A DNA stretch of 56,106 nucleotides, the filler included, from Dugesia japonica (Eukaryota), in NCBI GenBank assembly GCA_001938525.1. It is 5 parts of 5 records of this genome, joined end to end, with 100 filler letters (N's around TTAATTAATTAA, not from the genome) between each part and the next. Parts side by side here need not be neighbours in the genome. Positions count along the whole stretch, not along the records: positions 26,155 to 35,015 come from MQRL01614754.1; 4 more parts are not named here. One strand, 5' to 3'. The notes under the pieces are model-generated. The model did not search any database. It was not told where the DNA came from and was given only the letters and a program-made list of their open reading frames with translations. Below are positions 8,998-54,200 of the stretch, piece by piece. The stretch's first letter is position 1; every line of letters starts with the position of its first letter. Made by a program: the position numbers and the translations under genes.

Positions 8998-9014
8998 TAT
9001 AATCTGAAATCCAT

Positions 9015-11000: not shown

Positions 11001-12616
11001 AAGTATTTACAAAGCTTCTTACTTATTGCAATTTCTGCTTTTTATTGGTATCATTTTAATCGAGCAATTATTAATTGTTTGTATTTAAATTAAAACACAA
11101 ACTTGTTAGTAAATAATTAATTACAAGTAGAAAGAATATTCTCTCAATTATATTATTTATTATTTTTAATGATATTCTAAATATTTTAGTGTGTTAGGAA
11201 ACTTTTCCAGCGGTCCAAGTTTGATACTTTAGTTGCCATTTCTGATCTAAGAGAAATACTTTTTTCATTTCAATCTTACTTTATTATGAGATTTCTTTTA
11301 TTGAAATATGATATAAATTTTTTTTATATCAATATTATCATAAATATTTTATTGTTTTTAAAAACAGAAAGAAATTCATGAAATTAAAAAAAAATTGTCG
11401 ATATTCTTTATTAAATTAGTTTTTCTTTTAAATATATTTTTACATTAAAAAATAATGAAGTTTATACGAATATAGGAAGGAAATACTTGTGTTTGTATTT
11501 TTCTTTACGATAATTCGAAAATTTGATTTAAAAGTTAAAAGCGTAAATCAAAACAAATTTTACCTAAAATGTCTCAAAATTTTCGAATATTGTCTTTTTC
11601 CAGCCCCTATATTCGTATTTTCAGAATAAATATTGTAAATATCATATTATGAAATGAAATAATTTTTTTAATTAATTTATTGTCTACATAATAATTTAAA
11701 TAATTTATTCAACAATTTCATTATCTAGATCCTAACGTTTTTCTTACATTGACTTCTTTTAAAAACAGAAGAATGGTCTTCTTCATCAACCCCCTTACAT
11801 TTTTCTATAATTTACAGTATACAGCATAGATACATTACGAGTTATTGCATTTAAATAGCATAAAAAAGAATAAAGCGAAGAATATTAAAGAAATTTAAAA
11901 AGTAATAGTTTTTTTGATTTGTTTTATTATTTTCTATACTATTCTCATTTTACCAAAATAAGCGTTAATATTTTTGGAATTCATTATGTTTGCATTATTT
12001 GTTTTTTTGGTTTCGTTTTATCGTGTTCCACGTTTTACTTTTTTATATTGGATTTTTAAAATACATTTTAATACTTAATTAATTCAGTATTTAATACCTT
12101 TCTCAAACGGAAATTGTAGTAACTATCATTACAAGTTGCATATATTAATTTGAAAACATGTTTTTTTTGTTGGAGGCAATTAATTTGACAGATTATTTCC
12201 AAATAAATATTCTAATTTCTGTAGTTAAACTTAAAAACGGTGCTAAGCTCATATCATATCGTTGTTTTATTTATTTTCAAGTTTAATAAGTAGATAAAAT
12301 AAGTAAATTTGACAGAAACGTTGTGCCTGATCAATGATTTTTTTGGTTTTTCCCGATGAAGAGCTAAATAAATTCAAAGTTACATATAATACATAACCAT
12401 TACAAAAATCTTCACAATAATCCTTATCCTTACAACGATAACTTTTTTTAAAATGATACAAATCAGTAATCGATTTTATTTTAAAATACGATAAATAAGA
12501 TTAATTACATTTTCAAGAAATTAAAATTTTCAAGTATTATGGAAATATTTTAATATTCTTTTACGATTCTATTATTTAATCAATATGATCCAAATTATAA
12601 ACTTGATTCTACTTGT

Positions 12617-12745
12617 TTTACAATTACAATTATTGCGAGAATAATTGTTGGACGTAACCATTGATCGTTTTTCAGAATTCATTTAAAATAAAAGCTTCGA
12701 TCAAAATTTTGTTTATTTTTGGTTTTTGATAAAAATTCGATATTT
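12617..12745 (-). repeat. Penelope-like repeat copy, 5'-truncated near the hammerhead site
   Basis: Reverse complement matches 9102-9230; similarity stops at AAATATCGAATT. Confidence 0.75.
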
Positions 12746-13145
12746 TATAATTGTTATTTATAATTGTTATAAATCAGTAGGTTATATATTTATACTTTTC
12801 TATCTTATGTAAAACAGTTAATAAGTAAATAAAATATTAATTTTCAAGATAAATATTAAAACCAGTCATTTTGATAGGCTAATTGACTTATACTTTGTCA
12901 ATATTACGCTGTTTTATTAATAAAAACTAGTTACCAATTATTTTAGATGTAGACTCTTTTATCAAGAAAACACTATTAAAAATTATACATTAATTTAGTT
13001 TTTGAATGATGACAGTCGGTATAATTATTTTTATTGATTAAACCAGAGTTTCCTCGACTTTTCATGCTATGAAATATTCCGAAAATAATAAAATGTTAAT
13101 GGAACACAGTATTTTTTCTATGGTAATTATCCGTTAATTTACTGT

Positions 13146-14369: not shown

Positions 14370-14469
14370 NNNNNNNNNNNNNNNNNNNNNNNNNNNNNNN
14401 NNNNNNNNNNNNNTTAATTAATTAANNNNNNNNNNNNNNNNNNNNNNNNNNNNNNNNNNNNNNNNNNNN
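14370..14469. other. Artificial contig linker
   Basis: 44 N + TTAATTAATTAA (stops in all six frames) + 44 N. Confidence 0.97.
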
Positions 14470-15086: not shown

Positions 15087-16960
15087 AAATGTGCCACGCA
15101 AATAAGAGCGTTCTTATGATTAACAAATTATTACAGACGTTTTATAAAAGATTATGCTTTACTTGCAGCAATATTGTATCCAGCGATGACAGGACAAGAA
15201 AAGAACATTGAATGTACAAAAGAATGTAAGGATAGTTTTCAATCTTTGAAGATTTTGACTTTCCAAAGTAATAGAAGCGAAATGATATTGAATACTGATG
15301 CTAGTTTTGGAGCAATTGGGGGGTTTAGAGTCAATGACGTATAATGAATAGGAACAGGTCATAGCATATGGTTCTCGAACTTTAAACAATCATGAAAAAG
15401 TATATTGCGTTACTCGCAAGGAATTGTTAGCTCTACATGAGTTAATGATGTATTTTAAACACTATTTGTATGGCAAGAAATTTAGAGCAAGAATAGATCA
15501 TAAAGCATTGACTTTTATGACGAAGACTAGTAAGCCCATTAGTTCTCAGGTTCAAACATGGATAAANAATCTAGCAAAATTTAATTTTGAACTAGAATTC
15601 TAAAAAGGAGCAACTCATGGAAATGCTGATGAACTTTCAAGGATAGAAGAGAGTCTTTGTTTGCAATGTCAGACTATACATCAAGATGCCAAAGGGGAAC
15701 GAAATCGAGTTAAAAGAATCAACACTTTGGACAAAACAAACTTTGATAGAAGCAATATTAAAGAAGTACGGAGAAATGATCAAATAACGAGAGAAATAAT
15801 TGTATATATTGAAAGTGAAATGATAAATAATAAACTGAGCACAATGGTGACCAAAAGTAAATATTTTTACAAACTGGAAAAGTTTAAGTTGTATGATGAA
15901 ATACTGATTATCAATCAAGGAGACAAGAAAAGAATTTTACTGGCAAGAAAATCGATACCTAACCTTATATATTTTATACACGATGATTATATGTCATGTT
16001 GGAGGCCAAACACTGACGGAGTATTTGAATTTAAGTTTGTTTTGGCAAAATATGCAAAGACAAGTAGAACATCAACTAAAAATCGTATGATATGTAACAT
16101 GAGTAAAGCATACACTGGTTGAAAAAAAGAATTTCTTATTCCAAGAACAGAATTTGGACCACTAGAACAGGTTATCATGGATATCGCTTACTTTCCAGAA
16201 GTGAAAACCAAAGAAAATATGTTCCCGTCATGGTTGAGAGGTATAGTAAGTTAGTGTTATTCGTAACGTTAAGTAAATAGGACGAAATGTCGGTAGTTAA
16301 AGCAATAAAGAAAACCTGAATATATCGATTTGGTAAGCCAAAATCATTTATGACCGACAGAGCAAAAATATTTGAAAGAAAGTTTATGTGATCACTTGCA
16401 GAGAAGTTTGGGATTCAAGAAGAATTTTCGTTCTCATATCAACATCAATCAAATGGTTTAGCAGAAAGAAATATTAGAACACTTTGAGATATGATGGTAA
16501 CTACGATAAAGAACGGCTGCACGGAATCAGGTTGGTACAAATTACTTCCACAAATTCAGTTTGTAATAAATGCAACACAACAAAAATCGANNNNNNNNNN
16601 NNNNNNNNNNNNNNNNNNNNNNNNNNNNNNNNNNNNNNNNNGATTACCACTATCAGGAAATCCGAAACACAAAGAAATGAAGAAAACTGGCGGATAAAAG
16701 TTTACAAAAAGCCGCTCAAAATTTAACCAAATACGATTGTGAAAAACTAACTTCCAGCCATTTTGAAGAAGGCGAAAGAATATTAGTGAAATTAGAACCA
16801 CACAAGTTAAAGAAAGATGGTTTCAGCTATGAGGGTCCTTAAAAAATTAGTAAATTTATAACCCAACATCAGGGCTTATAGATTATGCAGGACAGCTTAA
16901 ACCGAGAAGAGTTGAATAGCTAAAGAAAATTAAAAATAAAAATTAAAAAGAGAGAGAGCA
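15087..16960 (+). mobile_element. Decayed Ty3/Gypsy pol (RT end, RNase H, integrase) with PPT
   Basis: ILNTDASFGAIG, YCVTRKELLA..FKHYLYGKKF..DHKAL, MTDRA, YQHQSNGLAERNIRT; purine tract AAAAGAGAGAGAG at ~16946. Confidence 0.92.
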
Positions 16961-19699: not shown

Positions 19700-19703
19700 T
19701 AAG

Positions 19704-21060
19704 AATTAAAAACAAATGGAATGAAATTTCCTGCAACAATTGATGGTGTAAAATTATTTGAGGAATTGAATGATTGGAAAGCACATGTGTTTGTTGTAAC
19801 TGATTCTGAAAAACTAGAACCTTTACTCATTTCACATTTAGAAACAAATCTAAATCATAATGATAAAAAATGTAATTTATTAATTTACAAAAATCATTAT
19901 ATTATATGTAGAGATGTGAAAGTATTTTTAAAAACTAATAAAAATAATAATCATGTATGCTTGATATGTATGAATTGCTTATTATTATCAAAACATCAGA
20001 AGGAATGTGTTAACTATAAAATATTAATTCATTTAAAAATTATTAATAAAAATATAAAATTCCATTTATAATATATGGAGATTTTGAATGTTTGACTAAT
20101 TCAATTAGTCAAAAAAAATCAATATCTCTTGGAATTTATGTAGTGAGTAAATACCAAGATTTCATGAAAAATGAATACAAAGAATTTTATGGTAAAAACA
20201 TTCATGAAGAATTCTTTGAATTTTGGCAATCTGATAAATAATAAATAGATAGATATTAAAAATAGCAAATTAATTAAAGCGTTTTCAGGTAATGCACCAA
20301 ATATTCAAACAAATCAAAAAATGCAAATATTGTGAAAACATTTTACACCAAGATTACGTATTAGATAATGACCATTTTAAGGGTAAATTACGAGGTTATT
20401 GTCATACAAATTGTAACTTACAGGATTGTTCTATTAAAAGATTATTCATTTTATTCAACTTTCACAATGCACCTGAATATGATAATCATTTATTTTTTAA
20501 AGAATTATTTGCAAAATATCCCAATAAAGTTAAAATAATTTTACATACCAACGATGTTTACATATCATTACATGCATCATGTATGACTAAGTCTTCACGA
20601 ACTGGAGAAACTTTTGAAACTAATGACTTAGTTTATATCCCTGCAACAAATCAAATAAATTATATGTATGAAGTTGATTTAGAATATCCTCCAAAAATAC
20701 ATGAAAAACCAAATATTTTCCATTAGCAAAAGCTCGAATTCATATTACTGAAAATATGTTAGCTCCTAATCAATTATCAGTTTTACGCGGAGCTCAACCC
20801 GGAGGTGCAAATAAAAAATTAAACAAGAAAAATGTTTAATTAAATAAGAATCAATTTGATAAACAAAATAAAATGTTTGCTTCAATTTCTTTATCTGTTA
20901 TAATATCATCACAATGGTGATTGTCATGGTATCATGGAAGAATAGTATGACCAATGGTTTTAGGCAATTGTAAGAGTCTTCTGGACTATATGCTAGTGTA
21001 TTTGAAATTGGATGTATATTTATTGGCAGATTTCTTCCAACAGTTCAGATTGAAAACTAA
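19704..21060 (+). mobile_element. Polinton pPolB continuation (decayed, internally deleted or rearranged)
   Basis: MKFPATI..FEELN; CKYC..DNDHFKGKLRGYCHTNCNL (endonuclease VII-like); FHNAPEYDNHL (exonuclease motif); YEVDLEYP; YLKLDVYLLADFFQQFR. Confidence 0.88.
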
Positions 21061-21554
21061 TTGACCAAGTTTTTCCATGATTAGGAAATAATTGACCAAA
21101 TCACACCAAAATCAGCCAAACTTTACATTACTGAGGAAATAATTTACCGAATTCATATAAATCAGAGATTTATTTAATATTTTTTTTGAAAATATTAATT
21201 TCTACAATGTGAAATTTTAAATAATTTGATATAACGCAATTGAAATGCAAAATGAATAAGGAAATGCAATTGGTAATCTGTTTAAATAAAGACACATTCA
21301 ATTATCACTGGATAATATTTTGAGTGACATAGTTAAAATGTAAAAAACTTTATTAAAAAAAATAATAAATAAATAATTTGTAAATAAAATATAAAAATAA
21401 AAAATAATTTTCTCAAAAAGTGTTCAAATAAACAAGTTACAAAAAAATAAATGAAAAATAGTTTTCTCCAAAAAAGAGTGTTCAAATAAACAAAACTTAC
21501 AATAAAAAATTTCAAATTTAGTTTCATTAAACTAAAAAGATTATTTTTCAAGTA

Positions 21555-21996
21555 ATGGGTGGGGTTACTACCTTTGACTTTAAGAAAAAATTGACTTTAA
21601 AAATTTTCCGAAAAAATAAAAAAATATTTAAAAATTTTTTTGTTAAGTAATGTGTTTCCGTGTGGAGGGTACTACCTCTGGTCATGAGAAATAAATTGAC
21701 TTTGAGAATTTTTGAAAAAACAAATTTCTCAAAAAAAATGTTTAAGTTATGTTTCCGTGAGGACGGATACTACCTGTGACCTTGACAAAAAAAGTTTTTT
21801 ACAAAAAAATTAAAATTTTTTCAAAGGGGCTACCTTTTTACTCATCACACCTTAAAATGCAAGGGAGGGTGGGTGGAGGTAGGGATGTCCGATGATTCAC
21901 CTCTCCCTTCCCAAAAAATGTCGGTGACGACTCATCGGTGGGGTGTACTTCTATCCTTCGAGAGGCCCTGGTTTGGTGCACTCATATCTACCTAGT
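21555..21996. repeat. GC-richer terminal-type region with three ~100-bp spaced repeats
   Basis: GGTTACTACCTTTGAC / GGGTACTACCTCTGGTC / GGATACTACCTGTGACC; region ends ...TACCTAGT. Confidence 0.5.
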
Positions 21997-22559
21997 ATAT
22001 TTATTATCAAATAAATCTTATATAACAAAAACCTTGTTTTCTTTTTAATTTAATCTTAAAATCTTTTTAATTTTAACTTTATCAGAGTAATTTAATTCAA
22101 TATTTTCAACCATTTGTTCTATTACCAAATCTAAATTCATGGTAAAAGAACAATAAATTTTTTTTGTCATGAATAACTAAATATAAAATAACAACAACAA
22201 CAATGATAAAAGCAACATATATTTTTAAAAACAGTTCACATATTTTGGCCCAAAAGAGTGCCGGTTTTACGTTTAGATATATACTGATTTTTTACCGATT
22301 TCTTCTTTTCTAAAATAAAAATAATTAAATAATATGATAAAAAACTAAATAAATGCCTCTTATTTTTCATAATTTTCCTTAGCGTAATGAGTCGACATTA
22401 GATTTTTCAAAAAAAAGAACATTTATAGAACAGTTTGTAGGTGACTAGTCCAAATAAGTCCTGAATGATTCGAATAAATCCGAAATCATAGATTTTTTTT
22501 TATTAATTTTTTTTATTCAGAAAGAACTCAATTTGATTAATTCTTGGGCGTTTTGGGAC

Positions 22560-24148
22560 TAAACAGAGGATATTTAGCCTCATTGATTATATGATGTAAG
22601 TAAATGTGATAGCTCACTTTGATTACTCTTTCGATTGATATTTGCGAGATTTTCTTTATTTCATTTGAGGTTAGACCAATTTGTTTGAGAGCTTTTTGAT
22701 TGAAGGGGTTCCAAGAGGCTAATGTACTAATAACAAGATCATCAAGTTTAAAATCTTTGTAGGACTTTGAGCTAATTTCGGCTCTGATGCACTCATATTT
22801 TTCCTATTATCTTCTCTAACTTTTGCGAAGCTTTGTAATGAATAATATGGAACCTTTATGTCAAGAATATGAATGTGTGCATTTCTGTGGCTCTTGATTA
22901 TTAGATCAAGTTTGAGCTTTGTTGTGAGTCCTTGTTGATATGAATCCATTTCTACATCAAAGTTCGATTTTTTAAGTTGAGCTGCCATTTTTTCCATAAC
23001 ACCATTGTTTTTATAGCACCTTTGATTCCTCATGACTGAACAGTGGTTGAATATGTGTGTTTGAGTTTCCGCTTCAGTATCACATTGACTGCAGTGAATT
23101 GGCATATTGCTCTTCAGTCTGTAAGGATTGAAGTTGGTTTTCAGAAGATTGTTTCTTGCTCTGACAAGGAAGAGGTAATCGCTTGCAGAAAAGTTTATGT
23201 TTTTCATAAATTTGTAAGCATAGTCTGATGAGGCTAGACAGGTTGCTAGAAGAACTTGTGTGGGAAGGTTTTACAAATTTTGGAAATATATCATCCCAAT
23301 TTCAGTATGTAGGACATTGCACAATTTAGACTTTGAGCTGCAATTGATCAGTATATTGAGAAAGGAATTATAATTATTCAGTCCAGTGGTTTTCAGGGTT
23401 TTTTCATTTTCTTCAGTAAAGAAGACCAGTTTTAGTTTATGGGCAAGATGAGACTAGATAAGATTCATCTTATTTATCAGGTTTCAAGATGAGATTAGTT
23501 NAGAACGTTTTCCATTGACCAGGTATATACTTAATCTTTAGAATTCTTTTAAATAGAGTCTGTAGAAAAAGTGATTGAGATAAATTTTAAGCTAGTCAGA
23601 GTAAGTGATTTTATCCATCCAGGGTGAGAATTTTGAAGTGCTGTTAAAAGCAATTTTGATTTGATTGAAGGTTATTTCATTGTTATTGAAAAAGTCTTTA
23701 AAAGGTGGAATATCAAGAAGTTTAAACTTATGTATGTTTAAGTTTTCTGGCAGAATCTGAGTGAAATGATTGATAATATTCTCTTTAGTTGGGGTTGAGT
23801 CTGGAATTGTTGATCCAAGAATTTCATAAAATACTTTTGAAGACGTTTTTATATGCCTGCTCTGAAGTGAGTATTTAGATTCAGTAAGATCGTCTCTGAT
23901 CTTGTGGAAAGTGTGTTTTGCCCNTTTATTGATAAGCTTGTTAGGAACTATTTTGAGTAGTTCTCTAGATGCTACATTGATAGCTTCAGTTATGTTTATT
24001 GTAACTTCTTTAATTCTTATAATGAAAAGAGTCATATTTGGTTTCAAGTTGGTGTGATTGGAGGTAAAAATCTATTTGATATGATTGTTGACCATGGATT
24101 TGATTTCCTGTCTATATTCCTTAGTATATGGTACAGTGAAGCTTTTGC
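22560..24148 (-). mobile_element. Decayed non-LTR retrotransposon with restriction-like endonuclease (R2/NeSL-type clade)
   Basis: CSQC..ETQTHIFNHC zinc knuckle, KLDLII..ILDIKVPY (PD-D/ExK-like), upstream EITF..KFSPWMDKITY (SPGPDG-like pre-RT motif); most of RT deleted. Confidence 0.82.
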
Positions 24149-24330
24149 CTGGAGTGCATTGATGTTCTGCTGTTACTGGTTGATCATTTAGATAGTCATG
24201 GATCTCTTCAGGGATAACTATGTCTACATCCATAGTGTATCCGTACGACAATGCATCAAAGTCCAACATGTTATATTCTTGTAATACTGATTTTTAACCA
24301 GTATGTTCCCACTCAAAGTCTTTATAGTTT
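24149..24330 (-). mobile_element. Second Polinton pPolB fragment
   Basis: DFEW...YGYTMDVDIVIPEEIHDYLNDQPVTAE matches the GY.LEVDL.YP..LHD...D.P.APE motif. Confidence 0.75.
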
Positions 24331-24538
24331 TTAAATTAAACAAAACCGATAAAGATAATGTTTATTATGATATATTTAGCAACATTTTTTCTAGTAAAAT
24401 TGAATAGGATTATGAAGTTAATTTACATTGGAAAACAAAGTATAATTATTATTATTTAGATATAGAAGCAGATGAATTAATTGATAATTTTTTTGAAGAC
24501 TGAAAATATACTTCAACTTTAAAATACAAGTAAATAAA

Positions 24539-25085
24539 ATGTCTTCAGTTTCTATACAAGAATTAATTGATTTAATAAATTCAAATAAATCCAAATCTGT
24601 AAAAATTAATGGAAAAAACTATTGGATTGGAAAACAAGTTAGAGAAGAATTAAAAAGGAAAATGGCAACTAGGTAAGAACATGAAGGTGGATTTGCTTTT
24701 CTAGCTGCAATACCAGCAATTATAGCTGGTTTAGCAGGTGCAGCTGGTGCCACCGCGGCTGTCGCTGGTACTGCTTCTGCGATTTGCTAGTACAGTTAGT
24801 CAATCAAGATCCGCTCAAGCACAAGCTCTAGAAAAAATTAAAAAACAAAAAGAAATTAAATTAGTAGAATTACAGAAAAATAAATTGCAAGAAAATCCAT
24901 AAGAGTTAGATAAAACTGGTGGGGGACTTTATTTAAAACCATATCAAGGATCTGCAATTCATAAATATTTTAAAAATAGTTTAGATAATTCAGAGTTGAA
25001 AATAATTACTCAAAACTTTAAAAATGGAATACAAGTTAAAATAAAAGGAGATGGTTTATATTTAAAACCTTTTAAAAATAGATAG
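24539..25085 (+). pseudogene. Polinton/adintovirus virion core or membrane-active precursor protein (disrupted)
   Basis: EGG|FAFLAAIPAIIAGLAGAAG hydrophobic peptide; repeated GGGLYLKPY / GDGLYLKPF; internal stops and one frameshift. Confidence 0.7.
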
Positions 25086-25895
25086 TGAACAAATAACAGA
25101 AAGAATAAAACTTTTAAAAGAATTAATTAAAGCTCAAGATAACTATGATAATTTATTNACTACAGGAGTAATTGAATCAAGAACTTTACAAGATACTTTA
25201 ACTGTTCAACAATAACCTATTGTCGAAGCAATTGAAAAATTAGATGATAAACCTAAAAACCCTTTTGAAAAAAGAATTCCATTCTTTTCAAGTACTATTA
25301 GAAATCCTGAATTTTTAAAAGTTCCAGCAGTTATACCTATATTTCTAACTGAAGTTATTGATAATAAAAATTTTCAAAAAATAATTTATCCTAATTATAA
25401 AGATTCTATAACAGAAATATATTTATTTGAAGAGAATGGGAAAAAATACTTTGAAAATAATAAAAAGTAATTCCTTATTCTGAAGAATTAATGAATTTAA
25501 TTTTAGGAAATGAAAGTAATTATCCTGAAACAATTGATATTTATTTAAATAAATTTAATATTACATTTCATCATCAAAATAAATATTATAAATTTTTAAC
25601 TGGGATAGAAGTCAAAAAAGAAATCCCAAAGGGTCCCATTACAGTTGAAAAAGAAATTCAAAAGGGTTCCTTTCCTGTAGAAAAACATGAAATTCAAAAA
25701 GCGGCCATTAAAGGTGAAGGTTTAAATCACGATCCAGTTTATTTGTTTGAAAGATTAACATTATTAATTTCAGCTGTAAAAGCCGGTCATAATAATTTAG
25801 AACAAGAAATTAAATCTGTTTGTAAATTATTATTAAACCAAAAACTGATTACCAAAGAAAAATATAAAGTTTATAAAAATAAATACTTTACCTAA
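25086..25895 (+). pseudogene. Conserved Polinton/adintovirus protein of unknown function
   Basis: C-terminal GEG..DPVYLFERLTLLISAVKAGHNNLEQEI..L matches the DP.EL..RL.LL.....AGN....EI motif of Polinton ORFs. Confidence 0.7.
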
Positions 25896-25900
25896 AGAAA

Positions 25901-26054
25901 ATGTCTCATCAATTTTTAGTTGTTGGGAAAGAGTTTAACCTTAAAGTTAATTTAAGATTTCCAAATGAATTAGATTCAGAATTTGAAATGGGATTATTTT
26001 TTAGTTATTATAATATTATTTTTAATGTTACTATTAAAAAGAATACTTTCTACT
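25901..26054 (+). CDS. Probable Polinton minor capsid (penton) N-terminus, cut by contig end
   Basis: RFPNELDSEFEMGL..YYNIIFNVT.KKNTFY resembles the P..L...YE.GL....YNS..NV...NN.FY penton start. Confidence 0.6.
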
Positions 26055-26154
26055 NNNNNNNNNNNNNNNNNNNNNNNNNNNNNNNNNNNNNNNNNNNNTT
26101 AATTAATTAANNNNNNNNNNNNNNNNNNNNNNNNNNNNNNNNNNNNNNNNNNNN
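26055..26154. other. Artificial contig linker
   Basis: N44-TTAATTAATTAA-N44. Confidence 0.97.
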
Positions 26155-26269: not shown

Positions 26270-26690
26270 CATAACGTCATGAATTAGGAACTTGTTCAGT
26301 AATGAAGCACGCAATTATTTTAACAGACGAAACTCCAATTAAAAAAAGAACGTACAATCAGGAGATTTGCACGGAGAAAATTGAAGATATGCTAGTAAAT
26401 AATGTGATAGAACCGAGTTGTTCATCATGGGAATTTTCAGTAGTATTAATTAAAAAGAAAGACGGATCAACGAGATTTTGTATTGATTATCGAGATTTTA
26501 ACCCTAAAACAAAGAATGATACATATCCATTACCAGACATAAACCAGATGTTAGTGCTATCATATAATGCAAAATCTTCACGACGTTAGATTTACGAAGC
26601 GGATATTGGCATATCAAAATAGAAGAAGCAGAAAAAGAGAAAACAGCGTTTTCAGCAGGAAAAGATTTATATCAATTCATAGTATGTATA
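26270..26690 (+). mobile_element. Ty3/Gypsy reverse transcriptase N-terminal half
   Basis: VIEPSCSSWEFSVVLIKKKDGSTRFCIDYR..DTYPLPDI, then after a frameshift FTTLDLRSGYWHI..EKEKTAFS; ends abruptly (deletion). Confidence 0.93.
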
Positions 26691-26802
26691 ATATCAATAG
26701 TGGTAATGACACGGCCGATAAAAGATCGGAATTTAGGCGAAAAAATTATACGAAATAAACGAAACTACGACAGCAACAAGCTGAGCAAAAAAAACGGTCA
26801 AA

Positions 26803-28565
26803 ATGATAGATAAATGGTTATACATATTACTAGCATTAATAATGATAAAGGTAGTCCGAGGTGAAAGTACATGGACAAAGAGTCCGACAATAATAAAGAA
26901 TCAGAGTAAAAATGAGAATAACAAGTATTGGACAATAATACTAACAGCAGCTATAATGACGTCAATAACAATGTTATTAATTTTGTTGACGATCGTCTTA
27001 AAAGGCGAAAAAACGGATAAACGAAGAGAAATTGAAATGGAAACGCCAAGAGGAGTAGGTCAAATGCTGATTCCGAGGGAATTTATGGATATATATGATA
27101 ATAATTGTGATTATGATACGAGCAATTAATGGAGAGAAGTGCTACGATTATGAAGATGTACATACAGAACATCGAGTATATATAACGAGATACGAGGTAA
27201 AAGTGCTGACAATATGGAGAAAAAGATTAAGACGCGTTCTATCAAAAGGAGGTCATTATACGGAAACAGAATATGGAGCTCCGTTTACATGGGTACAACC
27301 TGGCATACAGGTAAAAGGGCACTCAAAGACTGTAAAGATTTTCAGAGAATCTTGAGATAAAAGGAGAAAAACCGCATGAAATGCAATTAATACAATACGA
27401 AGGGATTTATGAAAATCCTTACCGAGAGGAAACGTGGACGTCTAGTTACCGCAAAGATTCTTGAATTTTCGAAGTTAGAAGAAGCTTTAGTATATATTAC
27501 AAAAATTATTTTCACATCCTATACTCAATACAAGATTGGAACAAACTAACATGGGGGAGAAACGAGGGATATTGTGCTAAGAAACAAGTATCATATATAT
27601 CACATTTTTGGAAATTTACACCAGAAGGAGTGCATGAAGTACTTTGGACAAAACGAAGACGAAAATTTGAAGCCAAACGAAGTGATATATCCTACAGCAG
27701 GAGAAGTACACTCGTAATCATGAAAAATTGGGCAGGAAAGTTTGTGGACTTATCAGTTTTTCGAGAAGGAAAACAAAATATGAGAATCAAACATTATCTA
27801 TCACTTAATGATTGGAAAAATGGTGATTTGTTATTGGAATATAAATGGGACGACAATCAACAAGAATTAAAACGCGAAATACATTTGAGATATGGAATAT
27901 GGTTCGAAGTAGAATATATGATAGTGTGGGAGCTACCACTAGATAAAACGACGAAACGAGTCATCAAACCAAGAAATACAACAAGAATGACAATTGAACC
28001 AACGACGACAACAAAGTTAACCAGTAAACAAAAAACGACGCGAGGTAGAGAGACGACAAAACCAGAAACAACGAAGATGAGTAAAGTAAACAACATTACA
28101 GAAATCAGTACAACCGGTAAAAGAGAAATGATCAAAGTGAATAAACATGAAACTAGAATGAAAACGAACGAAAGATCAGAAACTTCGATAAGAGTGCTGA
28201 ATCAGGAAAATGATATTTTTGAAAGACTGATGGAAAAGATGGCAAGGGCCAACGAGATATAAAATCAAACCAGAGAAAATGAAACAATTAAAAAAAGTGA
28301 CGACGATAACGACGATATTAGAAACGGATGGTCAATGAGACTCATTGGAAGAGTTGGTGGAATCTTAGCTATAATATTGTTAACAATAATCGTATGTGTA
28401 AAAGCGAGAAAGGGACAATATGGGAGACCGAAAATTCTAACATTTGTAATATTAATTGATTTTGAAACAGTACTGGTATTATTCCTAAAAGGAATATATG
28501 GAATAATTTTTAATTTGATTAACCATTTCAATCTATTTTTTCTTAATTTCATAATACTTTTATAA
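26803..28565 (+). pseudogene. Env-like membrane glycoprotein or polyprotein (frameshifted)
   Basis: Signal-like WLYILLALIMIKVVRG, TM, second signal-like segment IIIVIMIRAING-EKC, aromatic ectodomain, Thr-rich stalk with NTT/NIT sequons, TM GILAIILLTIIVCV followed by KARK; same strand, directly after RT. Confidence 0.6.
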
Positions 28566-30239
28566 ACATCATTGTCTTTATTAAATGAATCAATAGAACT
28601 GTTAGGCTAGAACATATAATTTTAGTGCAAAAGAGCTAACAAAGCATCCCCAAATAATACGAAAATTAACAGAGAACCAGCGGAAAATTAAGTAAAAAAT
28701 TCGTGCTGGACCAGATATTTTGCCTTATAGTATNATTATTATTATGTAATTATTATAATTATAATTATTATACGATTATTATTGAAACGGGAAAAAATTG
28801 AAAATTGGGCGTAAAGGACCCAAATTTGGAGATACGACGATGAAATTTGGATGTACGAGTGGGAAATGATAAGACAAATAATAAAATTAATATAAAATAC
28901 TATAATAAAATATTAAAGGGGCCTCTGCGACCCATTATTGTTATTATAAATAACGCTAATTNNNNNNNNNNNNNNNNNNNNNNNNNNNNNNNNNNNNNNN
29001 NNNNNNNNNNNNNNNNNNNNNNNNNNNNNNNNNNNNNNNNNNNNNNGATGATTCAGTCGGAAAACTAAACAGTGAGACAAGGACATTCTCCTGACGACAC
29101 GAATTTGGTTTTTCCAAATTAGTTGTCAATCAATCGTGCATGCAGGCAAGCAAAGTTGTGGTGCGATCATTCCCGATATTCGAGAAAATCTGTTTCCAGG
29201 AACCAATGAATGGACGGGATTTTGAAATGCGAATCGACGATTGGACGAGTAATGAGAACTCTCCAGTCGTGGTGTCGATGAAGTGAATAAAACAAGATTA
29301 CTTAAAAAGGAGAAGAGAGAAAAAAAAGTGAAAAAATTATTTTTTAGCAAAATTTTATGCCAAATTTTTGAAATTTCAATTCATTGTGTAACAGCAGTTC
29401 CCGGAATATTTTATCCATCCTACAGTTATTCAACGACAACAGAAGTAACATTTATTGATTGTATTTTATTATTTTTGTATTTTTACAAAATGAAAAATCA
29501 ACATATCTATTATGAAATTAAAATTATCATGTCCGAGTGTCCGCATTAGAATCCTTATGAGTAACAAAATCGAATTATGAATTTAATGACGAGGAGAATT
29601 CCGAAACGGGATTTTAAAAAAAATAGGAACCAAGAGATCACGGGAATTCAGAGGAATTCGCCGGGTAGCGTTTAAGCATAGAAAGGAGAAATCGAGGCCG
29701 AGAATTGTATCGCAAAAATAGGCTATTTGTCAAATTTCAACGGATATAAATTTTATAGAACTTTTTCTGATTCCCCGATGGGATCACTGTTTGGTTTGAT
29801 CTACTTTGAGTGATAGAAATTTTTTCCTTTTTGTCAAAAGCCGTATGAACATTTAATAAATAATAAAAATTATTATTCGAAATTCTCATTGATTTATTTA
29901 TTATTATTTATTTTATATGATCATTCATTATAATTAACAGATGTATTNNNNNNNNNNNNNNNNNNNNNNNNNNNNNTAAATCGAAGTGCAACCATTTCGT
30001 AATGATTAGGGAACGATTAATAGAGTTTGGCGATAACGGGAACGAGGAAAGATATCTATTACCAGTGGGTATCTTCTCTGGTTCGCGTTATGGGATGGTG
30101 GAAATGGTAATAGGCCCCAGGCCGAAGAAATCGTGCAAAAATCATGAGCTATTTAAAATTTGATTTTATTTTATTGTGGTCATTTTGATGACAGTATCGT
30201 ATATAGAGTAAATTGATAAAAATGATCATAATTTATTAG

Positions 30240-30602
30240 ATGATGAAAAACAGAAGAAATTTGAAGCGACCACGATATATATGGCCGTACATCTATCGCA
30301 ACGGCTACTACTATATCGAGTGGACGGAGGTCCAGGAAATGATCCGCGACGAGAAAATAAAACGGAAAGAAAAGACAACGGAATTGAGGGCGGATCTCGA
30401 GGTGGTCCATTTGCGGATTGCCATACTCGAAGCCAATAATACGCTGGTGGCTTCGCAACGGGATTGGTTGATGGCGGTCCTCGAGGAGACCGAGTCGACA
30501 GCCACTGCCGGGGACGTCCAACTGCCAGAGATGGATCTAGGTGGGAACGAGGTTGAAGAGGACGAGTTGGATTCGCAGGCCGAACAAGAAGAGGGGAAAT
30601 AA
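30240..30602 (+). CDS. Intact 120-aa basic / coiled-coil / acidic protein, possibly the last exon of a spliced accessory gene
   Basis: Open GC-richer frame directly after ttattag; an upstream frame (~29977-30106) ends at |gtaata in phase. Confidence 0.55.
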   Translation: MMKNRRNLKRPRYIWPYIYRNGYYYIEWTEVQEMIRDEKIKRKEKTTELRADLEVVHLRIAILEANNTLVASQRDWLMAVLEETESTATAGDVQLPEMDLGGNEVEEDELDSQAEQEEGK

Positions 30603-31478
30603 TGAGGAGCCTGCTGGGCCTGAGTGGTGCTAGCACGGTCTCAAGTGTAGTAAAAAAATAAAAAAATTTCTAAATGTATTGAAGAATTTGCTATTGATTT
30701 TTTTTAATTTTAAAATTTGGTTGTTATAGTAAATAGGTGAAAGTGTGATATGTACGTCACGATAATCTGCAGAGACAGGGTTAAATCAATTGCGTTTCAT
30801 TTTATTTTATTTCGTTTATTCGGAAGTTTTTAGAATTGTCATAACTGAGAATAGAATAATTATAAAATTCGAAAAATATAAATTATAATTATTGCACGTT
30901 AATTATTTCAGAAATGATGCCAAAATTCTGCAGAAGGGCAAAAGACCGTTCAAAGCTCATGTTGGATGATTTGAACATTTCGGCTAAAATTAAATATGTG
31001 CCGAATTATTTTTTTTTAAAATTTATTTTAATTCATTAGAAAAGTCAATTTTCGATCGTGTAACCTCATGTTTTAGTCAGTAGAAGTGTATTATTTATAT
31101 TTTACAATANTTTTATTTTGAAAGATATTGACATAAATGAGTTCCAATTTTATTATTCGCCATTGTGCCTGTTAATATTTAACATTAATCGTGAAAACCG
31201 AGTATGGTGTAAGGGAATATGGGAAAACGATATGATCAATTTAAATTTATAATGACAACGAATAATGAGCAAATGAGTGGGTGATAATTGGGATTCCTGA
31301 AAAAGAAACGTAAGACGTGATACCACAAAGTCGCGCTGAACCCGCAGAAAAGAGGTGCATGTCACAGAGGTGACTAAATGCTTGTGGTTTTTAGGTATGC
31401 CCCTAGATGAAATATATCGGATTTATTTAGTTACGGAAATAATCGAATATGAAGAGTGCAGATATTAAACTCAGATAT

Positions 31479-31937
31479 TCAAAATCCTAAAAATCCAACA
31501 GAACCATTTTCAACTCGTGATGTAGTTGGTGTATTTGTTGTATTATTCACATTGTCTTTATATAAAAATGACGAATTAAATGTGTTCGTATAAGTGGTAT
31601 TATTAACTGTGTTTTTATACAAAGACGATGAATCAAATGTTGGCCTTTGTGTTTTATTATTCACACTACTGCTTTCAAATGCTCGATTACTCATTTGTTG
31701 ATTAGCATTAAATGGTGTGCTGTGCATAAGTGGATGTTTCATTTTAACTGGTGTTTTAAAAATATCTGAATTACCTGTGACATTAATTGGACCAGATGTT
31801 GAAGCAACCATAATTTTTTGTGCTCCAAGTTGCATTTGTTTTCGTTTTGCAATTTTATTTTCATACCCTCGTGTGATTTGATTGGATCGATTTAATTTAT
31901 AAACTTTGTTTCTACCTGTGTTTTTCATTATTTTCAA
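31479..31937 (-). CDS. Hypothetical N/T/S-rich protein with internal repeats
   Basis: 152 open codons in AT-rich DNA; repeats FESSSVNNKT / FDSSSLYKNTVNNTT / FNSSFLYKDNVNNTT. Confidence 0.35.
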   Translation of the reverse strand: MKIMKNTGRNKVYKLNRSNQITRGYENKIAKRKQMQLGAQKIMVASTSGPINVTGNSDIFKTPVKMKHPLMHSTPFNANQQMSNRAFESSSVNNKTQRPTFDSSSLYKNTVNNTTYTNTFNSSFLYKDNVNNTTNTPTTSRVENGSVGFLGF

Positions 31938-32382
31938 AATATTTATTTATGCCAAAGTTCAGTAAAACAAATGAATGCGGCGACATATCAAGCGATACTG
32001 GCGGATCTGTTAGTACTAATGACAATAATAACACATCATCATCTTGCATGTATATTGTAAAATTTTATTTTATTAAATTATAAGAATTAAAGGGACACTC
32101 TCAATCAACATTACGAAATTTGGAAACAGATAACGAAGCAAACAATAAAGACAAAGGAAGCTCACTTGAACGAACTACTGAATGTAATAAACGAGCAACA
32201 AAGAGAACAAATGTTGATATTGATAATGTTAGCCTTTCATCACCCAAACGAATTTATTTTAATGAAGATGAATTTGAATCTACCAGTGAATTGCCAGAAG
32301 TAGACAGCAAAAGGCACCATCATTATACATTTAATTTTACTTAGGGTAAATTTACAACTATGGAAGATTAATATGTTAATTA

Positions 32383-33225
32383 ATGGACGCAGACGAAAAA
32401 CTAGAAGAGCTCACTGCAGACTAAATAAGAGGGGATCGTGAATTCGTGCCATATTATACAAATAGCGACAGCGAAGATTTCTTAGGGTCCGAAACAGACA
32501 TTTTTATATTTGAACCAGGTGGTAGTCTGATAGACCTGACCGAAAAAATAAATACGAATAAAGATAGAATACATCTAAAGAGATTATCTTCAAAATACAT
32601 ACCATTAAAATTTGGAAAAACCAATTCATTTGACAACAATCGAAAATACTATCGCGCTAAAAAAGGTGCGTTACTCACTTATAATAAATCAATAAATATA
32701 ACTATATATGTATATAATCCAGTAGTATCATTTTCACATAATATATACAGATAATTGTAGATATATTTTCAAAAAGAAACCGGCTTTTCAATCAAGATTA
32801 TTATTCCTTCAAAACAAAGCACAAATAATGTTGTATGAAAAACATAGGGACATCCCAAACTCATTTGATTATCATTGGAATGATATCGCTCTAATTACCT
32901 TATTTATTGAGGAACACTTTCTTTGTCCTGTGTTATGACCAACCTATAGTACCCCGAATTGCACAATGCGGACACTATTTTTGTTTTACATGTATAACTC
33001 AATACTTCGATATAATCTTCTCCGATGATTTACCATGTCATCCTTGTAGATCTTACAATTAATAATCAAAAACCTCAAATGTGTTGATTTTTACTATACA
33101 CAATGTCCCACAATATGTTAATTAATACCTTTCGAATTGTTAATAAAATTACCCTATAATAACTGCGCGCGTATCGCCAACTTGACTCCGTTTATGCAAC
33201 AAAAAGACATACCAGAAACGTGTAA
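32383..33225 (+). pseudogene. RNF10/Mag2-like C3HC4 RING E3 ligase gene, intron-containing and disrupted
   Basis: GT-AG intron 32666-32750 joins in frame to FQSRLLFLQNKAQIML..HWNDIALITL..CP(V)CYDQPIVPRIAQCGHYFCFTCITQYF..CHPC..FRIVNKITL; frameshift at ~32930 and later stops; RING not in ORF track. Confidence 0.8.
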
Positions 33226-33465
33226 TTCAGTAAGCGATTATCTCACAATTTGTCTACAAAGAGATGCCGAGCAAGGAAAGGCCAACTAGCAAGAATCCTA
33301 ACTATATCCCATATATCAACAGACATTTTCACAAGAACTTTCATCTTTTCCTTAATTCGTTTCACCAGAAACTGAATTCGGAGTTTGCATTTTCAATGAA
33401 AATTGTCTTAATACGATCCCTTCTCTTTATCATAATATAGCCTACCCTTATTTTTCAGCATCTTT

Positions 33466-33722
33466 TGTGAAGGGGATGCATATGTTGAGATCCCACATAT
33501 ACAAACATACATACATGCCACATACTCAGACACACACACACACAGACAGATAATAAATATTCAAAACCAAATCAGAGAACCAAACATATAATAGTAAATC
33601 AATGCGACGGTCAAATACAAGTGGAAGAATAATTTGAAGTTCCCCGGAATGTTGTCATTATTATCAAACGCTATAATACTNNNNNNNNNNNNNNNNNNNT
33701 ACTGTAAATCTTTTATACAACA
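33466..33722 (+). mobile_element. Polypurine tract and start of putative 3' LTR
   Basis: GTGAAGGGGATG then TGTTGAGATC at 33483; the same 10-mer is a terminus (19699, minus) of the TSD-flanked element; possible CAACA end at 33722 beyond an N gap. Confidence 0.6.
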
Positions 33723-35015
33723 AAAATAAAAGTTTCAAAAAGTGTTATTTCATTTATTTATATAAGGAGATTTGCACATATATTATCTTATTTAAACTTT
33801 TTTTATAATTATATTAAAACTATATAATGCTGTATTTACACAAAAAAAACAACCTAAACAAACAAAATACCGATTTCAATAAAATACTGATTTGTAGTAA
33901 ATAGAATTAATATGGAGCAAGTTACATTCTTTTTGAGCCAATTTAAAATCTTTGGTTGAGTCAAGTACCCAACAATAACAATGCACATATAGCTCAAATT
34001 ATGTATGATTTTAACAAAAATATCATATTTGTGTGGATATAAAATAGACAGAAATGAATTATTTTTTAAAAATGAATATTAGATTTTATTGTATCAATAA
34101 CAAACACTTAACACTAAATATGCATTAATTTCATGAACCTTTCATGATTTAACAATTTGGAGCTTATTATTTTCTGTTCAAAATAAAGGTGTTTAAGTAA
34201 TTTTTAACTATCATGAAAATAATAAGGCCATTGAAATTTTAGAAATTCCCTAGAAATCAATTTTTTAAAAAGAACATTCTGTCTCCACTAAATAACATTT
34301 CAGGTATTATGATAAGCAATAATTTAGGCACTTCAAAAATCTTCTTTAGTTATAAATGCCTTTAATTTTCAAAAGTTAGGATTTTATATTTTACAGTTTT
34401 TAAGAGATTCCANNNNNNNNNNNNNNNNNNNNNNNNNNNNNNNNNNNNNNNNNNNNNNNNNNNNNNNNNNNNNNNNNNNNNNNNNNNNNNNNNNNNNNNN
34501 NNNNNNNNNNNNNNNNNNNNNNNNNNNNNNNNNNNNNNNNNNNNNNNNNNNNNNNNNNNNNNNNNNNNNNNNNNNNNNNNNNNNNNNNNNNNNNNNNNNN
34601 NNNNNNNNNNNNNNNNNNNNNNNNNNNNNNNNNNNNNNNNNNNNNNNNNNNNNNTTTAAAACCAACTAATTTAGTTGACCAAACTACTTAAACAATCAAA
34701 GTATGAATTCACTAAATAAAATAATTTTTTGATTGGAACTTTTGTTAAATTTATAGTGATTAATAGTTTAAATATTTATATTCATAAATTTATTGTTTTA
34801 TGTTTTCTTATTTATTCTTTTTCAACTTTAATTTAATTATTCCATTTAGGAACATGAATTTTTAAAAAAGCTCTTCAAAATCGAAAATCTTTATACAAAC
34901 AAAATAAGTACATAAAGATGTAAGAATATAATATTTGATAAATTTATTAAAAAATTTTCTCTTATTCCCTTTACAGCATATTCTCTCATATGATGAATAT
35001 AGCGAATGTAATATA

Positions 35016-35115
35016 NNNNNNNNNNNNNNNNNNNNNNNNNNNNNNNNNNNNNNNNNNNNTTAATTAATTAANNNNNNNNNNNNNNNNNNNNNNNNNNNNN
35101 NNNNNNNNNNNNNNN
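35016..35115. other. Artificial contig linker
   Basis: N44-TTAATTAATTAA-N44. Confidence 0.97.
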
Positions 35116-36254
35116 ATGAATGAGTCACCAAACACTAATAGAAACACATGTTGTAACTGTAAATCTCTCAATACTAGTAAAACATGTCCATTTTCTTGTT
35201 AATAAATAAGAAATATTTTTGAAACAAAATCTGATTTAAAAAAATATTCCAAAAACTAAACTTATTAAAGTCATCAAATTTAATTTGAAAAAACAAATAT
35301 GCATTTGATTTCATTGAGAACAAAATGTCACTACCAAATGTGCTGTTATTAATGAACAGTAGTTTTTCACAATCATGAAGTTTTTTTCAATTAATCCTCA
35401 CGGAAATGGAATAAAAATATCAATATGAAAATTCAAATATAAAAATATTTTCTAAGTGAATAAATATCTCAATCGATTATTTATATTTATTTGTATTTTT
35501 GTAATTGGATTGATTAAGTGGTTTAATTGGAATTTTAGAATTGATTTCCATAAATTAGATAAAGAAATTTAATCTTCCATTCTATTAGAAAATTATTAAT
35601 GAGTACTTTTAAATCGATTTTGATTTCTTGATTGATTTATGCCAAATAAAATTATTATGGGTTGAAATATAGATCTGCTATTTTTGTTTAATCATCTAGT
35701 TTATTTAACTATTTAATTTGGAGATTGTATTTAATAATAAATTGCAAGTATACTTTTTATGTTAAGGAATTTTTCAATTTTAACCCAAATAAATGTTGCA
35801 ATGTGTGTACAAACTGAGTTCCATTTAAACTGGTAGATGAATAATATTTAGAAAGATATTATTTACTTTGAATTTAGTTCAAATATTGATCCAATATGTA
35901 CCTTTCGATTTGCGAGTAATATAGATAAAATTGCTTATTTTTTATTAAAATTGAATTTTTATAAAGTTCTAATTACAAATGATGTCAAAGTGAAATAATT
36001 ATTACATAACAACCACCAATGTTTATATCTCAATATGATGACACAAAATTTAATCTACTTTATGGAATATTTCAAATNNNNNNNNNNNNNNNNNNNNNNN
36101 NNNNNNNNNNNNNNNNNNNNNNNNNNNNNNNNNNNNNNNNNNNNNNNNNNNNATAACAAAACCTGCAAAAATTTATTCTTTATTGAAAAATGATATATCT
36201 AATTACTAAACGGCGAAGTCATATTTGTACACCTAAAAATTTTCATCTTTTCAT

Positions 36255-36360
36255 ATGAATTCATTTAAAATAAAAACTTCGATCGAAATTAGTTTTTTTT
36301 TTGGTTTTTTTAGATTAATTCGATATTTCGACTTTGTATTCGTTAGGAATTGACTTTCGT
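36255..36360 (-). repeat. Penelope-like repeat copy (subfamily A)
   Basis: Reverse complement reads AAGTCAATTC-CTAACGA-ATACAAAGTC-GAAATATC-GAATT. Confidence 0.75.
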
Positions 36361-51200: not shown

Positions 51201-54200
51201 TTTCAGAAAAAAATATTAAGGCAATTGAAAATTCATAACGTTTGTAAAGAATTTTTAATAACATATTGATCTGATTTTTTTTTCATTCTATATGCGTACT
51301 TATCCGGAATGAGCAAAATTTTTTATGCGTACTTGTCCGGGAGATTAATGTATATAAAACAAAACCATACGAAATTGACGTAAAATTTTTTAATTTATTA
51401 AGCCCAAACTTTTATTTATTCTATTTAGTCGAGTGTAGGGCAAAAAGCCGTTGGACAAAATGTTCCCAAGTGCAAAACTAAAACAAAAAGTCATCGGAGT
51501 TGAATATTTCGTAAATATTTCAATCCTGTTATAAAAATATTCAATTCTGGGAACGTTTTGTCCGGTTATTGTTTAGCCATGTCTGCTTTATTTTAAAGAA
51601 AATACTTTTGCTATTTAGAATTATATCACAATTTTAGTAGTACAAAATTTTCGGTTACACGTCAAAACTGCGCGACTAAAACAGTGCAATGAAATAATGG
51701 CGCAAGAAATAAAATAATATAAAAACAATAAAATAATTTAGTAATTAATAAATTATAATAATGAAAACATTTAATTTATTTATTTAAATACTAAAATTTA
51801 AACATTTAACAGAAAATTGCACACAATAATGAACGTTCACCCTATTCACCAACAATTTTAATAAGACGTTTCTCCGTATCCCTATACTTTTCACTTTGTT
51901 CCAGAAGATCATTCACTGCTAAAAATTGGTTGAGTTTAAAATCATAAAGATTTTGTTCATATTTTATCTTATTGATAAATTTCCATATAGTTGAATGATA
52001 AGCACCAAGTAAAGGACTAAAACTAAGATACCACCCTTTTATAGCATTGTTTATTTTGGGAAGTCCATCCAAAAAAGCATAAAAGCAGTTTCATAAACTA
52101 ATGAAGTATAATGGTTGTCTATGTCTACTTTTTCTATGAGAACGAACAATTAATGTATCTTCGAAATAATCAAGTAGAGGTTGAAGAACAGTTAATTTCT
52201 GTATATAAAATGCACTGTCACAAGTTTGTGAAATAATATATAAATACGAATAATCACATCTGCAATTGGGAAAAAAGCTAATGATGGTAACATACGGACA
52301 TCAAGAGTAAACTCAGAATCGTTTATGTATCGCCGATGTAAATCATGTGATTCTTAAATGGCTCACCAAATACACTGGCTTAAATGAAAAGAAAAAGCAC
52401 GTTGAGATAAATTAGGAAAAGCTCAAAAATGTTCAAAATCAATCATTATTGTAATTGGTTTTAGAGACGGTTCCAAAATTTTTTAAGCTTCCAACACCCA
52501 CTGATAGGAAATGTGAATTTTATCAGGTATTAAAGCAAAAACTGATGGAATAACATTGTGATAGTTTATTCCATGAATATTATATAGCTGTTAGAATAGA
52601 GGTGGACTACTTAAGAGGTGCTACTTTAAATGTACCATCTGCATACCAGTGATCATTACGAGCTAGAAGCTGAAGATGCCTCCTTGTAGAAAATATTAAT
52701 ATTCGATCATTAGAAGGTCCGTTATCGAAAAGAAGGAAATCTTCGTTTGATGTTTTGGTGAATTCTTCAGAGATAATTAAATCTCGTAAGTTTGTTCGCG
52801 CACGACTATTGTGTTGTACACTTAATTCCTGATATTGATGGCAATACATCAGCTGTTGCTTACGATATGCCAGTTTTATATTCGCAAAAATTCCTTTGAC
52901 TTGTCGCTTTATTTTTAATGGCTTTTACTTCTGCGCCACTACGATGAAACTACTGTGAACTAGTAAATCATGACAACGTAAAGAGAAATGGTTTGCATTT
53001 TGGCAAAAAGAATACTGGTGAAGAAACTTTCAATGAATTATATGCGGATGTTCATTTGGGGGGTGTTCATTTTTAAATATTTTCATGGTTTTCGGACCCT
53101 TTGAAAATCTAAAATTTAAATGAACCGAAATTAAATTAAATTTTCTCCCGTATTTTAAGTGAAATTCAAACAAATAGTCTCTGATTTTAGACTAGACCAG
53201 AGTAATCACAATAAAATACACTATCCGCGAACAGAACTACCATCCGGTGAATGAACAAATTCTTAAAATTTGTGTTTAGTTAAGCAAGATATATCGGGAT
53301 AGCCAATTTACGAATGTACTGCAAAGTCATTGGCGAAATATCTCTGGAAAGTAATTGCCTCATGGTCCCAACGAAACTGCTTTTGAGATAGTCATTAGGA
53401 CCGCGGACACAAATTTGAGAACCACTACTATACAGTTTATCATACTAAATATAAATATTAAAGTTACATAACAGATATTGATCTTAATTCATTATGTATG
53501 CATAAAGTTTATTGAATTTTTTTCAGAGTTTTACTTCCATATTCAATTAGGAAATAATAGCCGGTGACATGAGATAGCCTCTGTGTAAAATCAACGATCA
53601 ACAATTTGTTAATGAAGCATTGAATTATTATCCGGAATGCTTCCATCCCCAAACATTCCGAATAACAGGGATTTCACTGTATTAAGAAATTAATCAACTA
53701 TTAATTAATTAATCTCTCACAAATTGCGATTTTTTAAGTTAAAGTTTTTTTAATTACAAATGTTAATTCTGTTAAAAGAAATTGTCAATATTGAAATAAA
53801 TATTACCATAAAGATGTATCGTGATAGGAAATTAGAAAATTATTAAAACTATGCATAGTTTTTTCTGTAAATGCTTTGATTGCCCACTGATTAGAAGTAT
53901 AAACTGTTCCGCCGTAAGAATGATCATATGATCCTGTCATCATCGAAGCTAGCAATAAAGGAATACTATCTTGATGTGACCATCCGGGTCCCTCAAAAGC
54001 TACTATAATATGAGCAAGAGGAAGATCGTCATCACGATGTCTTAAGTCTGATCCCGTATACCTGTATGGTAACTTTTGATCAATTCCATTTTCATAATTA
54101 CAAGAAACATTTCCAAAATATTTATTGGCAAGATTATGAAGATTATTATGATCAATATCTAAAGAATAATTTAATTATAATTTAATTTAAATTTGCCATT

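Follow-up and report, generated by a model that had tools for sequence, protein, structure and literature searches.

A frame-broken RNF10-like RING fragment in Dugesia japonica, likely a host-derived pseudogene outside LTR elements

The 56,106-nt stretch of Dugesia japonica DNA analysed here (the window; filler included, assembly GCA_001938525.1) carries a truncated and frame-broken copy of a RING-HC domain, which likely derives from a host gene of the RNF10/Mag2 family, resides at about one locus and is likely a non-functional pseudogene lying outside LTR elements. The best reading of the evidence is that of an RNF10-like truncated paralogue or retrocopy that died fairly recently. An earlier note on this DNA had proposed a host ubiquitin ligase captured, and perhaps repurposed, by a retroelement, while admitting the alternative of an ordinary pseudogene with no link to LTR elements; it is this alternative that fits the data best.

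The fragment is found in AT-rich animal DNA (GC 0.18-0.35) with many N gaps, and the joins at 14370-14469, 26055-26154, 35016-35115 and 47687-47786, across which continuity is not to be assumed, consist of 44 N, TTAATTAATTAA and 44 N. The coordinates of the main features are collected in Table 1. The WD40 exon of the WDR62/MAPKBP1-like gene has named relatives in molluscs, trematodes, an annelid and one plant; a location of the RNF10-like piece inside this gene was considered and is excluded as far as the gene has been mapped. The stretches at 19703-20723 and 24540-26050 we take, by eye and from gene content, to be Polinton-like; in this region (19703-26050) there is an endonuclease VII match at 20274-20723, and small hydrophobic or basic ORFs occur from 24540. 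A near-perfect 106-nt inverted repeat at 49542-49761 belongs to a small dispersed family, with further members at 1532-1703, 9008-9233, 12613-12765 and 36242-36357.

Table 1. Features of the window discussed in the text, with strand and basis of assignment.
Position	Strand	Feature	Basis
2977-4306; 15287-16119		Gypsy pol scraps	
22540-24071	-	LINE scrap, interrupting the Polinton-like pieces	
26275-26690	+	Gypsy-type reverse transcriptase (RT) scrap, frame-broken	RVT_1, E=4.5e-4; 29% to the pol scrap at 3055-3342
26785-28562	+	Interrupted ORFs with hydrophobic segments; likeness to env judged only by eye	Eye
29977-31500	.	Multi-copy repeat block, shared terminus CCAACA at 31500	Depth 611-7,272; joints
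32418-32419	.	Junction of two locus versions: RING side common, upstream side different	Contigs of X1 and X3
32425-32751	+	109-codon stop-free frame immediately 5' of the RNF10-like piece; could be a putative N-terminal part	Frame only
32726-32929	+	Stop-free piece (N piece): RNF10-like N-flank (LFLQNK block, W 32876 at 16 residues before C1) and C1-Pro	
32930-32933	+	Frame break (GTGT) within the first CxxC	Identical letters in X3 contig
32931-33059	+	Remaining RING-HC, C2 to C8, x11 and x14 spacing; stop codons at 33060 end the piece	PF00097; RNF10 RING profile
33050-33118	+	Other-frame piece (KNLKCV), weak match to the block after the RNF10 RING	Profile rank, shuffles
33088-33156	+	Third flank block of the earlier note, homology unsupported	Profile rank
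33469-33476	+	Purine tract GAAGGGGA, called PPT in the earlier note	422 nt beyond C8
33477-34412	+	Low-copy DNA beyond the tract, no LTR behaviour	Depth 11-49, one bin near 200
38640-41420	-	WDR62/MAPKBP1-like host gene, exons	
53806-54443	-	M16 peptidase, host gene	Pfam

The split RING domain and its relatives

All eight zinc ligands of a RING-HC (C3HC4) domain are found on the plus strand, split by a frame break in GTGT. The first ligand (C1, 32924), preceded by a tryptophan at 32876, is read in one frame, and the others (C2 32931, C3 32967, H 32973, C5 32982, C6 32991, C7 33036, C8 33045) in the next frame; read across the break, they form the pattern C-x2-C-x11-C-x-H-x2-C-x2-C-x14-C-x2-C over 32924-33047, in keeping with the general C3HC4 arrangement C-x2-C-x9-39-C-x-H-x2-C-x2-C-xn-C-x2-C, which bears out the previous observation of a RING divided between frames at a GT repeat near 32930. 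By itself, the second-frame piece exceeds the cut-off of Pfam zf-C3HC4 (PF00097), with 28.6 bits against 21 (E=1.3e-6). At least one additional frame break, absent from the earlier note, is located at 33048-33062, as implied by the piece at 33050-33118 being in another frame. Both breaks are matched by an X3 contig (475 nt, from a DNA-type run), which spans 32597-33071 with a single differing letter and, because this contig is free of gaps, we take the breaks to lie in the DNA and not to be assembly slips, bearing in mind that X3 could be the source run of the assembly itself. An X1 contig, from a separate study, spans 32419-34412 with 16 differing letters and one gap at an unplaced position. 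Short introns behind the first break were ruled out, since the x11 spacing leaves no room for them. The 109-codon frame on the 5' side has no Pfam match, and its best N-terminal-motif window ranks only 131 of 29,426; another motif-like window, within 32091-32300, shares first place among 29,426 with an unrelated piece, is some three times too distant on the 5' side and was set aside as a chance match.

The reference family was fetched with a short RNF10-type motif, yielding at least 110 loci, each with a motif ORF. When one family member was searched against proteins, 2,612 matched at E≤0.001; the 150 best of them were used, and 139 of these had a RING with enough flank. Sources apply the name RNF10 to 5 of 10 and to 2 of 8 of the clusters looked up, and to none of them the name of another family. 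The window copy shares with RNF10 of animals and Mag2 of yeast the C3HC4 x11/x14 arrangement, the tryptophan at -16 from C1 and an upstream block of FLQ type; with fungal members of the family it shares a P-x2-P-R-I stretch before CGH. Among the 139 proteins (from the best 150 of 2,612), the x11/x14 spacing is the family mode (123), the tryptophan at -16 occurs in 112 and an FLQ or YLQ block in 116.

The decoys in all profile comparisons were viral RINGs only, and the x11/x14 pair is absent from the ten commonest spacings of these 101 decoys. The RNF10 RING profile matches the RING piece with E=3.3e-9 in a search of 2,359 window pieces; nine of the 101 viral RINGs score equally well on it. Local scores of the RING piece average 71.7 (maximum 99) against the 139 RNF10 proteins and 55.2 (maximum 72) against the viral RINGs. 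Nearly all family ORFs (108 of 110, from the at least 110 loci) match the RING locus, with a best E of 5e-8, the best match elsewhere in the window having E=0.073. In the RING, identity to the family averages 0.29 and reaches 0.42 at most, against 0.72 within the family.

The fetching motif resembles the core of the query, a bias from which the flank tests and the full-length search alone are free. In the latter, a profile of the whole family protein, with 723 positions and drawn from 127 proteins, matched the RING piece alone among the 2,359 window pieces. On the flank profile, the N piece scores 9.2 bits, a value reached by 2 of 5,000 shuffles in which the terminal three residues were kept fixed, by none of 640 natural window stretches and by none of 67 viral RING flanks (viral maximum 5.3). 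In ungapped scans with RNF10 profiles, the block running from the tryptophan to CP ranks first of 24,273 windows (14.7 against 9.8 for the next) and the LFLQNK block ranks 47 of 33,577; shifting the upstream motif onto YTDNCRYIF gave a lower score and rank 147. Whole-domain profiles place the N piece second of 2,359, yet with E values of 3.1 and 0.9. Beyond C8 the likeness is weak, the following block ranking 170 of 38,295 windows with an HMM score matched by 497 of 3,000 shuffles, and the FRIVNKITL piece, at rank 2,923 or worse of 38,295, is at chance level. Hence, the RNF10-like flanks that had been aligned by eye survive upstream of the RING, in the LFLQNK and W-to-CP blocks, but not in FRIVNKITL.

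Taken together, the spacing, the N-flank score, the W-to-CP block and the full-length profile sustain the RNF10/Mag2 kinship formerly put forward, as judged against viral decoys only. On this sequence comparison the kinship can be called moderately supported, and the RING fragment very probably descends from RNF10. An origin in some other cellular RING-HC family (TRIM, TRAF, RNF5/PEX10-like or a lineage-specific ligase), with an RNF10-like flank arisen by chance, seems to us unlikely: the anchored flank test, the first rank of the W-to-CP block, the modal x11/x14 spacing and the concentration of family ORF matches on this locus all argue against it, whereas it would be in line with a PDB search of the RING that matched only TRIM39 and TRIM21, with the failure of flank-only profiles to list the N piece when searches were not anchored (up to E=5 in one and E=3 in another), with the weak or chance-level blocks after C8 and with the expansion of TRAF-like genes described for planarians (PMC8807557). 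Word-index protein searches with the flank and RING as query gave 38 longer candidates, none with E≤0.001, and none among near-length proteins either, both being weak negatives; a scan of viral contigs for the RNF10-type motif gave no matches.

The copy is truncated, as had been proposed. Family proteins extend for a median of 506 residues beyond C8 (139 of the best 150 of 2,612), whereas only 422 nt separate C8 from the purine tract, and the full-length profile finds no recognisable RNF10 C-terminal part among the 2,359 pieces of the window. The full-length RNF10 architecture with an intact frame is thus missing, which designates the copy as a pseudogene fragment and not as a working member of the family.

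Copy number and retroelement surroundings

Contigs of four sequencing runs were mapped on 29977-34412 at 80% likeness. Summed contig depth, which is not a true copy count, is 611-7,272 across 29977-31604 (a single bin there reaching 86,674/256,978) and 6-39 over 31605-33676, one bin excepted; long-contig depth is about 6-9 over 31464-32418 and 11-17 from 32419 onward. Low copy is accepted in spite of that caveat because the contrast is hundredfold and the long contigs agree, and the gene, together with the DNA to past 34412, stands at about one locus (from 32419, at 80% likeness). The several element copies envisaged in the earlier note are reduced accordingly to about one locus, a bump at 32937-33084 apart. 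X1 record 7 covers 31464-32448 at depth 5.9, and X1 record 8 covers 32419-34412 at depth 11.1 and bears 594 other letters upstream of 32419; X3 record 14 stops at 32418. Depths and junction are consistent with a pair of alleles, or of recent copies, having the RING side in common and different DNA upstream.

The bump in summed depth falls on the RING bin (32937-33084; 344/953), amid low-copy DNA. None of the variants listed came from this bin, and a similar bump, of about 200, is seen at 33677-33824, where the DNA is AT-rich; as a cause, partial low-complexity matches are likelier than diverged RING copies. The low-copy DNA further upstream holds stop-free frames at 31482-31946 (minus strand, with 57-nt repeats) and 32084-32341 (plus strand), with extra depth at 31901-32196; the stop-free frames in 31482-32341 have no Pfam match at cut-off.

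The terminus of the upstream repeat block is marked by at least six joints that rejoin at 31479-31480 with 21-22 letters. Its last 541 nt (30960-31500) have LTR-like 8-bp inverted ends, TGTTGGAT...ATCCAACA (one match, with 0.048 expected by chance), and no target-site duplication at these ends; this segment may be the 3' LTR of an upstream element. Inside it lies a core of about 100 nt (31310-31407) with variable flanks and very high copy (bins in 31309-31456 at 86,674 and 256,978), on which RNA reads map on both strands. The multi-copy block also includes a 120-codon ORF with an acidic tail (30240-30599), with no Pfam match at cut-off and Atlas matches below 0.9, and Rfam on 29977-35000 gave only two sub-threshold chance matches. 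Since the 31500 terminus is common to several contigs, 30960-31500 is LTR-like and the DNA beyond the purine tract is unlike it, an element appears to end 1.4 kb before C1.

The RT scrap sits 6.2 kb upstream, with two N gaps and the repeat terminus in between; these gaps (28962-29046 and 29948-29976) separate the repeat block from the RT and env-like scraps. No RNase H or integrase follows the RT scrap at 26275-26690. It is almost directly joined to the env-like ORFs, and signal-like starts at 26815 and 27086 are similar to each other; the env-like ORFs have no Pfam match at cut-off, and Atlas gave none usable for 27465-28259.

The statement that the fragment lies just upstream of a polypurine tract (PPT) is not confirmed, for the tract exists but is one of 19 on the plus strand that satisfy the same loose rule (7 on the minus strand; 3 on the plus strand with GGGG), and the DNA that follows is low-copy (depth 11-33 up to 33676) and not LTR-like. 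No copies of 33477-34412 longer than 27 nt occur within the window, the post-tract DNA bears no resemblance to 30960-31500, and no LTR pair was found in the 56-kb window, within the limits set by assembly gaps. Three marks of LTR cargo are therefore missing here: a position between two LTRs, a PPT followed by a repeated LTR and multiple gene-bearing copies of the element.

That an LTR retroelement took up an RNF10 fragment close to its 3' end and used it as an accessory ubiquitin ligase, this locus being a dead copy from a diverged or extinct family, is in our view improbable. The Gypsy RT and env-like scraps, which share the strand of the gene and lie 4-6 kb upstream, the lack of introns at two conserved sites, the scarcity of stops although no close expressed parent is seen and the raised depth of the RING bin would agree with it, as would the MATH/TRAF, SUMO-like and BIR domains borne by planarian Burro elements (PMC6431247), but the flanks of the gene and the post-tract DNA are at low-copy depth, the partner LTR is absent, the post-tract DNA differs from the LTR-like segment, the repeat block stops at 31500 and is parted from the env-like ORFs by N gaps, a second version of the locus has different DNA upstream of 32419, and the purine tract is but one among many. 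The corresponding scenario, in which an LTR lineage once bore a fast-evolving, truncated RNF10-derived ligase under selection, with this locus as its relic and the bump as diverged sister copies, likewise deserves little credence. Retroelement capture and repurposing, as advanced in the earlier note, is thus not supported, given the one-locus depth, the missing second LTR and the end of the upstream repeat at 31500.

Cargo of this general kind is known. Burro/GYPSM1, giant Gypsy LTR elements of planarians, provide a precedent in that they carry ubiquitin- and apoptosis-related domains together with env (PMC6431247); their copies, however, number in the thousands, and these domains mostly reside in a long ORF1 that precedes the protease (PMC6431247), whereas the present locus is single and has neither an LTR pair nor a polyprotein. 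Section 7 of the same source makes no mention of RNF10 in describing Burro. The Vesta, Juno and TelKA LTR elements of bdelloids resemble the proposed arrangement in having an extra ORF3 downstream of pol, but their cargo is a GDSL lipase, a DEDDy exonuclease or env, in defined elements (PMC5408684), and neither RING nor ubiquitin appears in the text available from that source. A Helitron is described as having supplied a promoter to an RNF10 gene, RNF10 not being its cargo (PMC4778049). No report of RNF10 as mobile-element cargo was found in the literature searched, most subscription journals, Repbase and bioRxiv supplements being outside its scope. Were capture nonetheless true, a connection between a mobile element and ribosome quality control would follow, and the retroelement ligase could have tuned this process on its own long mRNA.

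Expression, origin and loss of the copy

No RNA reads fall on 32345-33232 at 80% likeness in two runs, of which 6% and 25% were read, which argues, within the sensitivity of the mapper, against strong expression and against a near-identical expressed parent. A word search of sequencing runs listed no RNA run containing the sequence; three runs that may be RNA have 0.30-0.47 of its words, which carries no weight as evidence. The 108 codons of flank and RING contain no stops, where neutral drift of 10% or 20% predicts 2.3 or 4.2 (P of none 0.10 or 0.015), in a test that is biased because the pieces are themselves bounded by stops. Few stops and the lack of a close expressed parent suggest that the frame was probably kept open after the copy had diverged from the genes expressed today, its loss being fairly recent, and the deficit at 20% drift (P=0.015) suggests that the parent was already distinct. 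An open-frame period followed by recent loss fits a dead paralogue; it would fit cargo too, though in that case sister copies would be expected.

A splice donor just after the RING is present in 8 of 18 animal-type family loci, 7 of which also have an AG 27 nt before C1, and the window sequence runs uninterrupted through both family intron sites, as expected of a retrocopy, or after loss of introns throughout the lineage. A search for a poly(A) tail near the copy, whose ends are not delimited, gave nothing beyond an A8 run at 33842.

Unlike RNF10/Mag2, the window copy is frame-broken, has about 29% RING identity against 72% within the family, is devoid of some 500 recognisable C-terminal residues and shows no transcript. 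Two transcripts of a planarian transcriptome, dd_Smed_v6_3878 and dd_Smed_v6_9026, have RNF10 as their best human RING/U-box match (PMC8807557), with scores of no more than 74.7 and 58.5 bits (rows 199 and 376 of supplement file 2 in PMC8807557). Their low scores indicate that divergent paralogues exist in a plausible host group and, because these transcripts also score low, the low RING identity of the window copy needs no special story. By description, they are like it in being highly divergent RNF10-like RING genes; they differ in being transcribed, whereas the window copy has no reads.

That the gene is a live host paralogue of RNF10 whose breaks are confined to this assembly or strain, or else a fragment carried here by a DNA transposon, a Helitron or a Polinton, is very unlikely, given that the X3 contig agrees with both breaks without gaps, that RNA reads are absent from the two partly read runs, that the C-terminal part is absent from the window and that no transposon ends were seen round the gene, even if the few stops, the unplaced 1-letter gap in the X1 contig and the Polinton-like scraps might be cited in its favour.

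Under the preferred reading of a dead paralogue or retrocopy, a host RNF10 paralogue that was evolving fast would have given rise, by duplication or retrocopying, to a copy in transposon-rich intergenic DNA, which would likely have stayed open in frame for some time and then been killed by small indels. RNF10 and Mag2 monoubiquitinate uS3 on stalled 40S subunits (PMC11604940), so that this premise of the earlier note is in print, and by analogy the parent likely acted in the same way. The copy itself would have no present-day mechanism: since translation leaves the frame after the first zinc ligand, a RING would neither fold nor recruit an E2. As a pseudogene, it would be of little import, and would at most illustrate how genes arise and die within a divergent RNF10 family of invertebrates.
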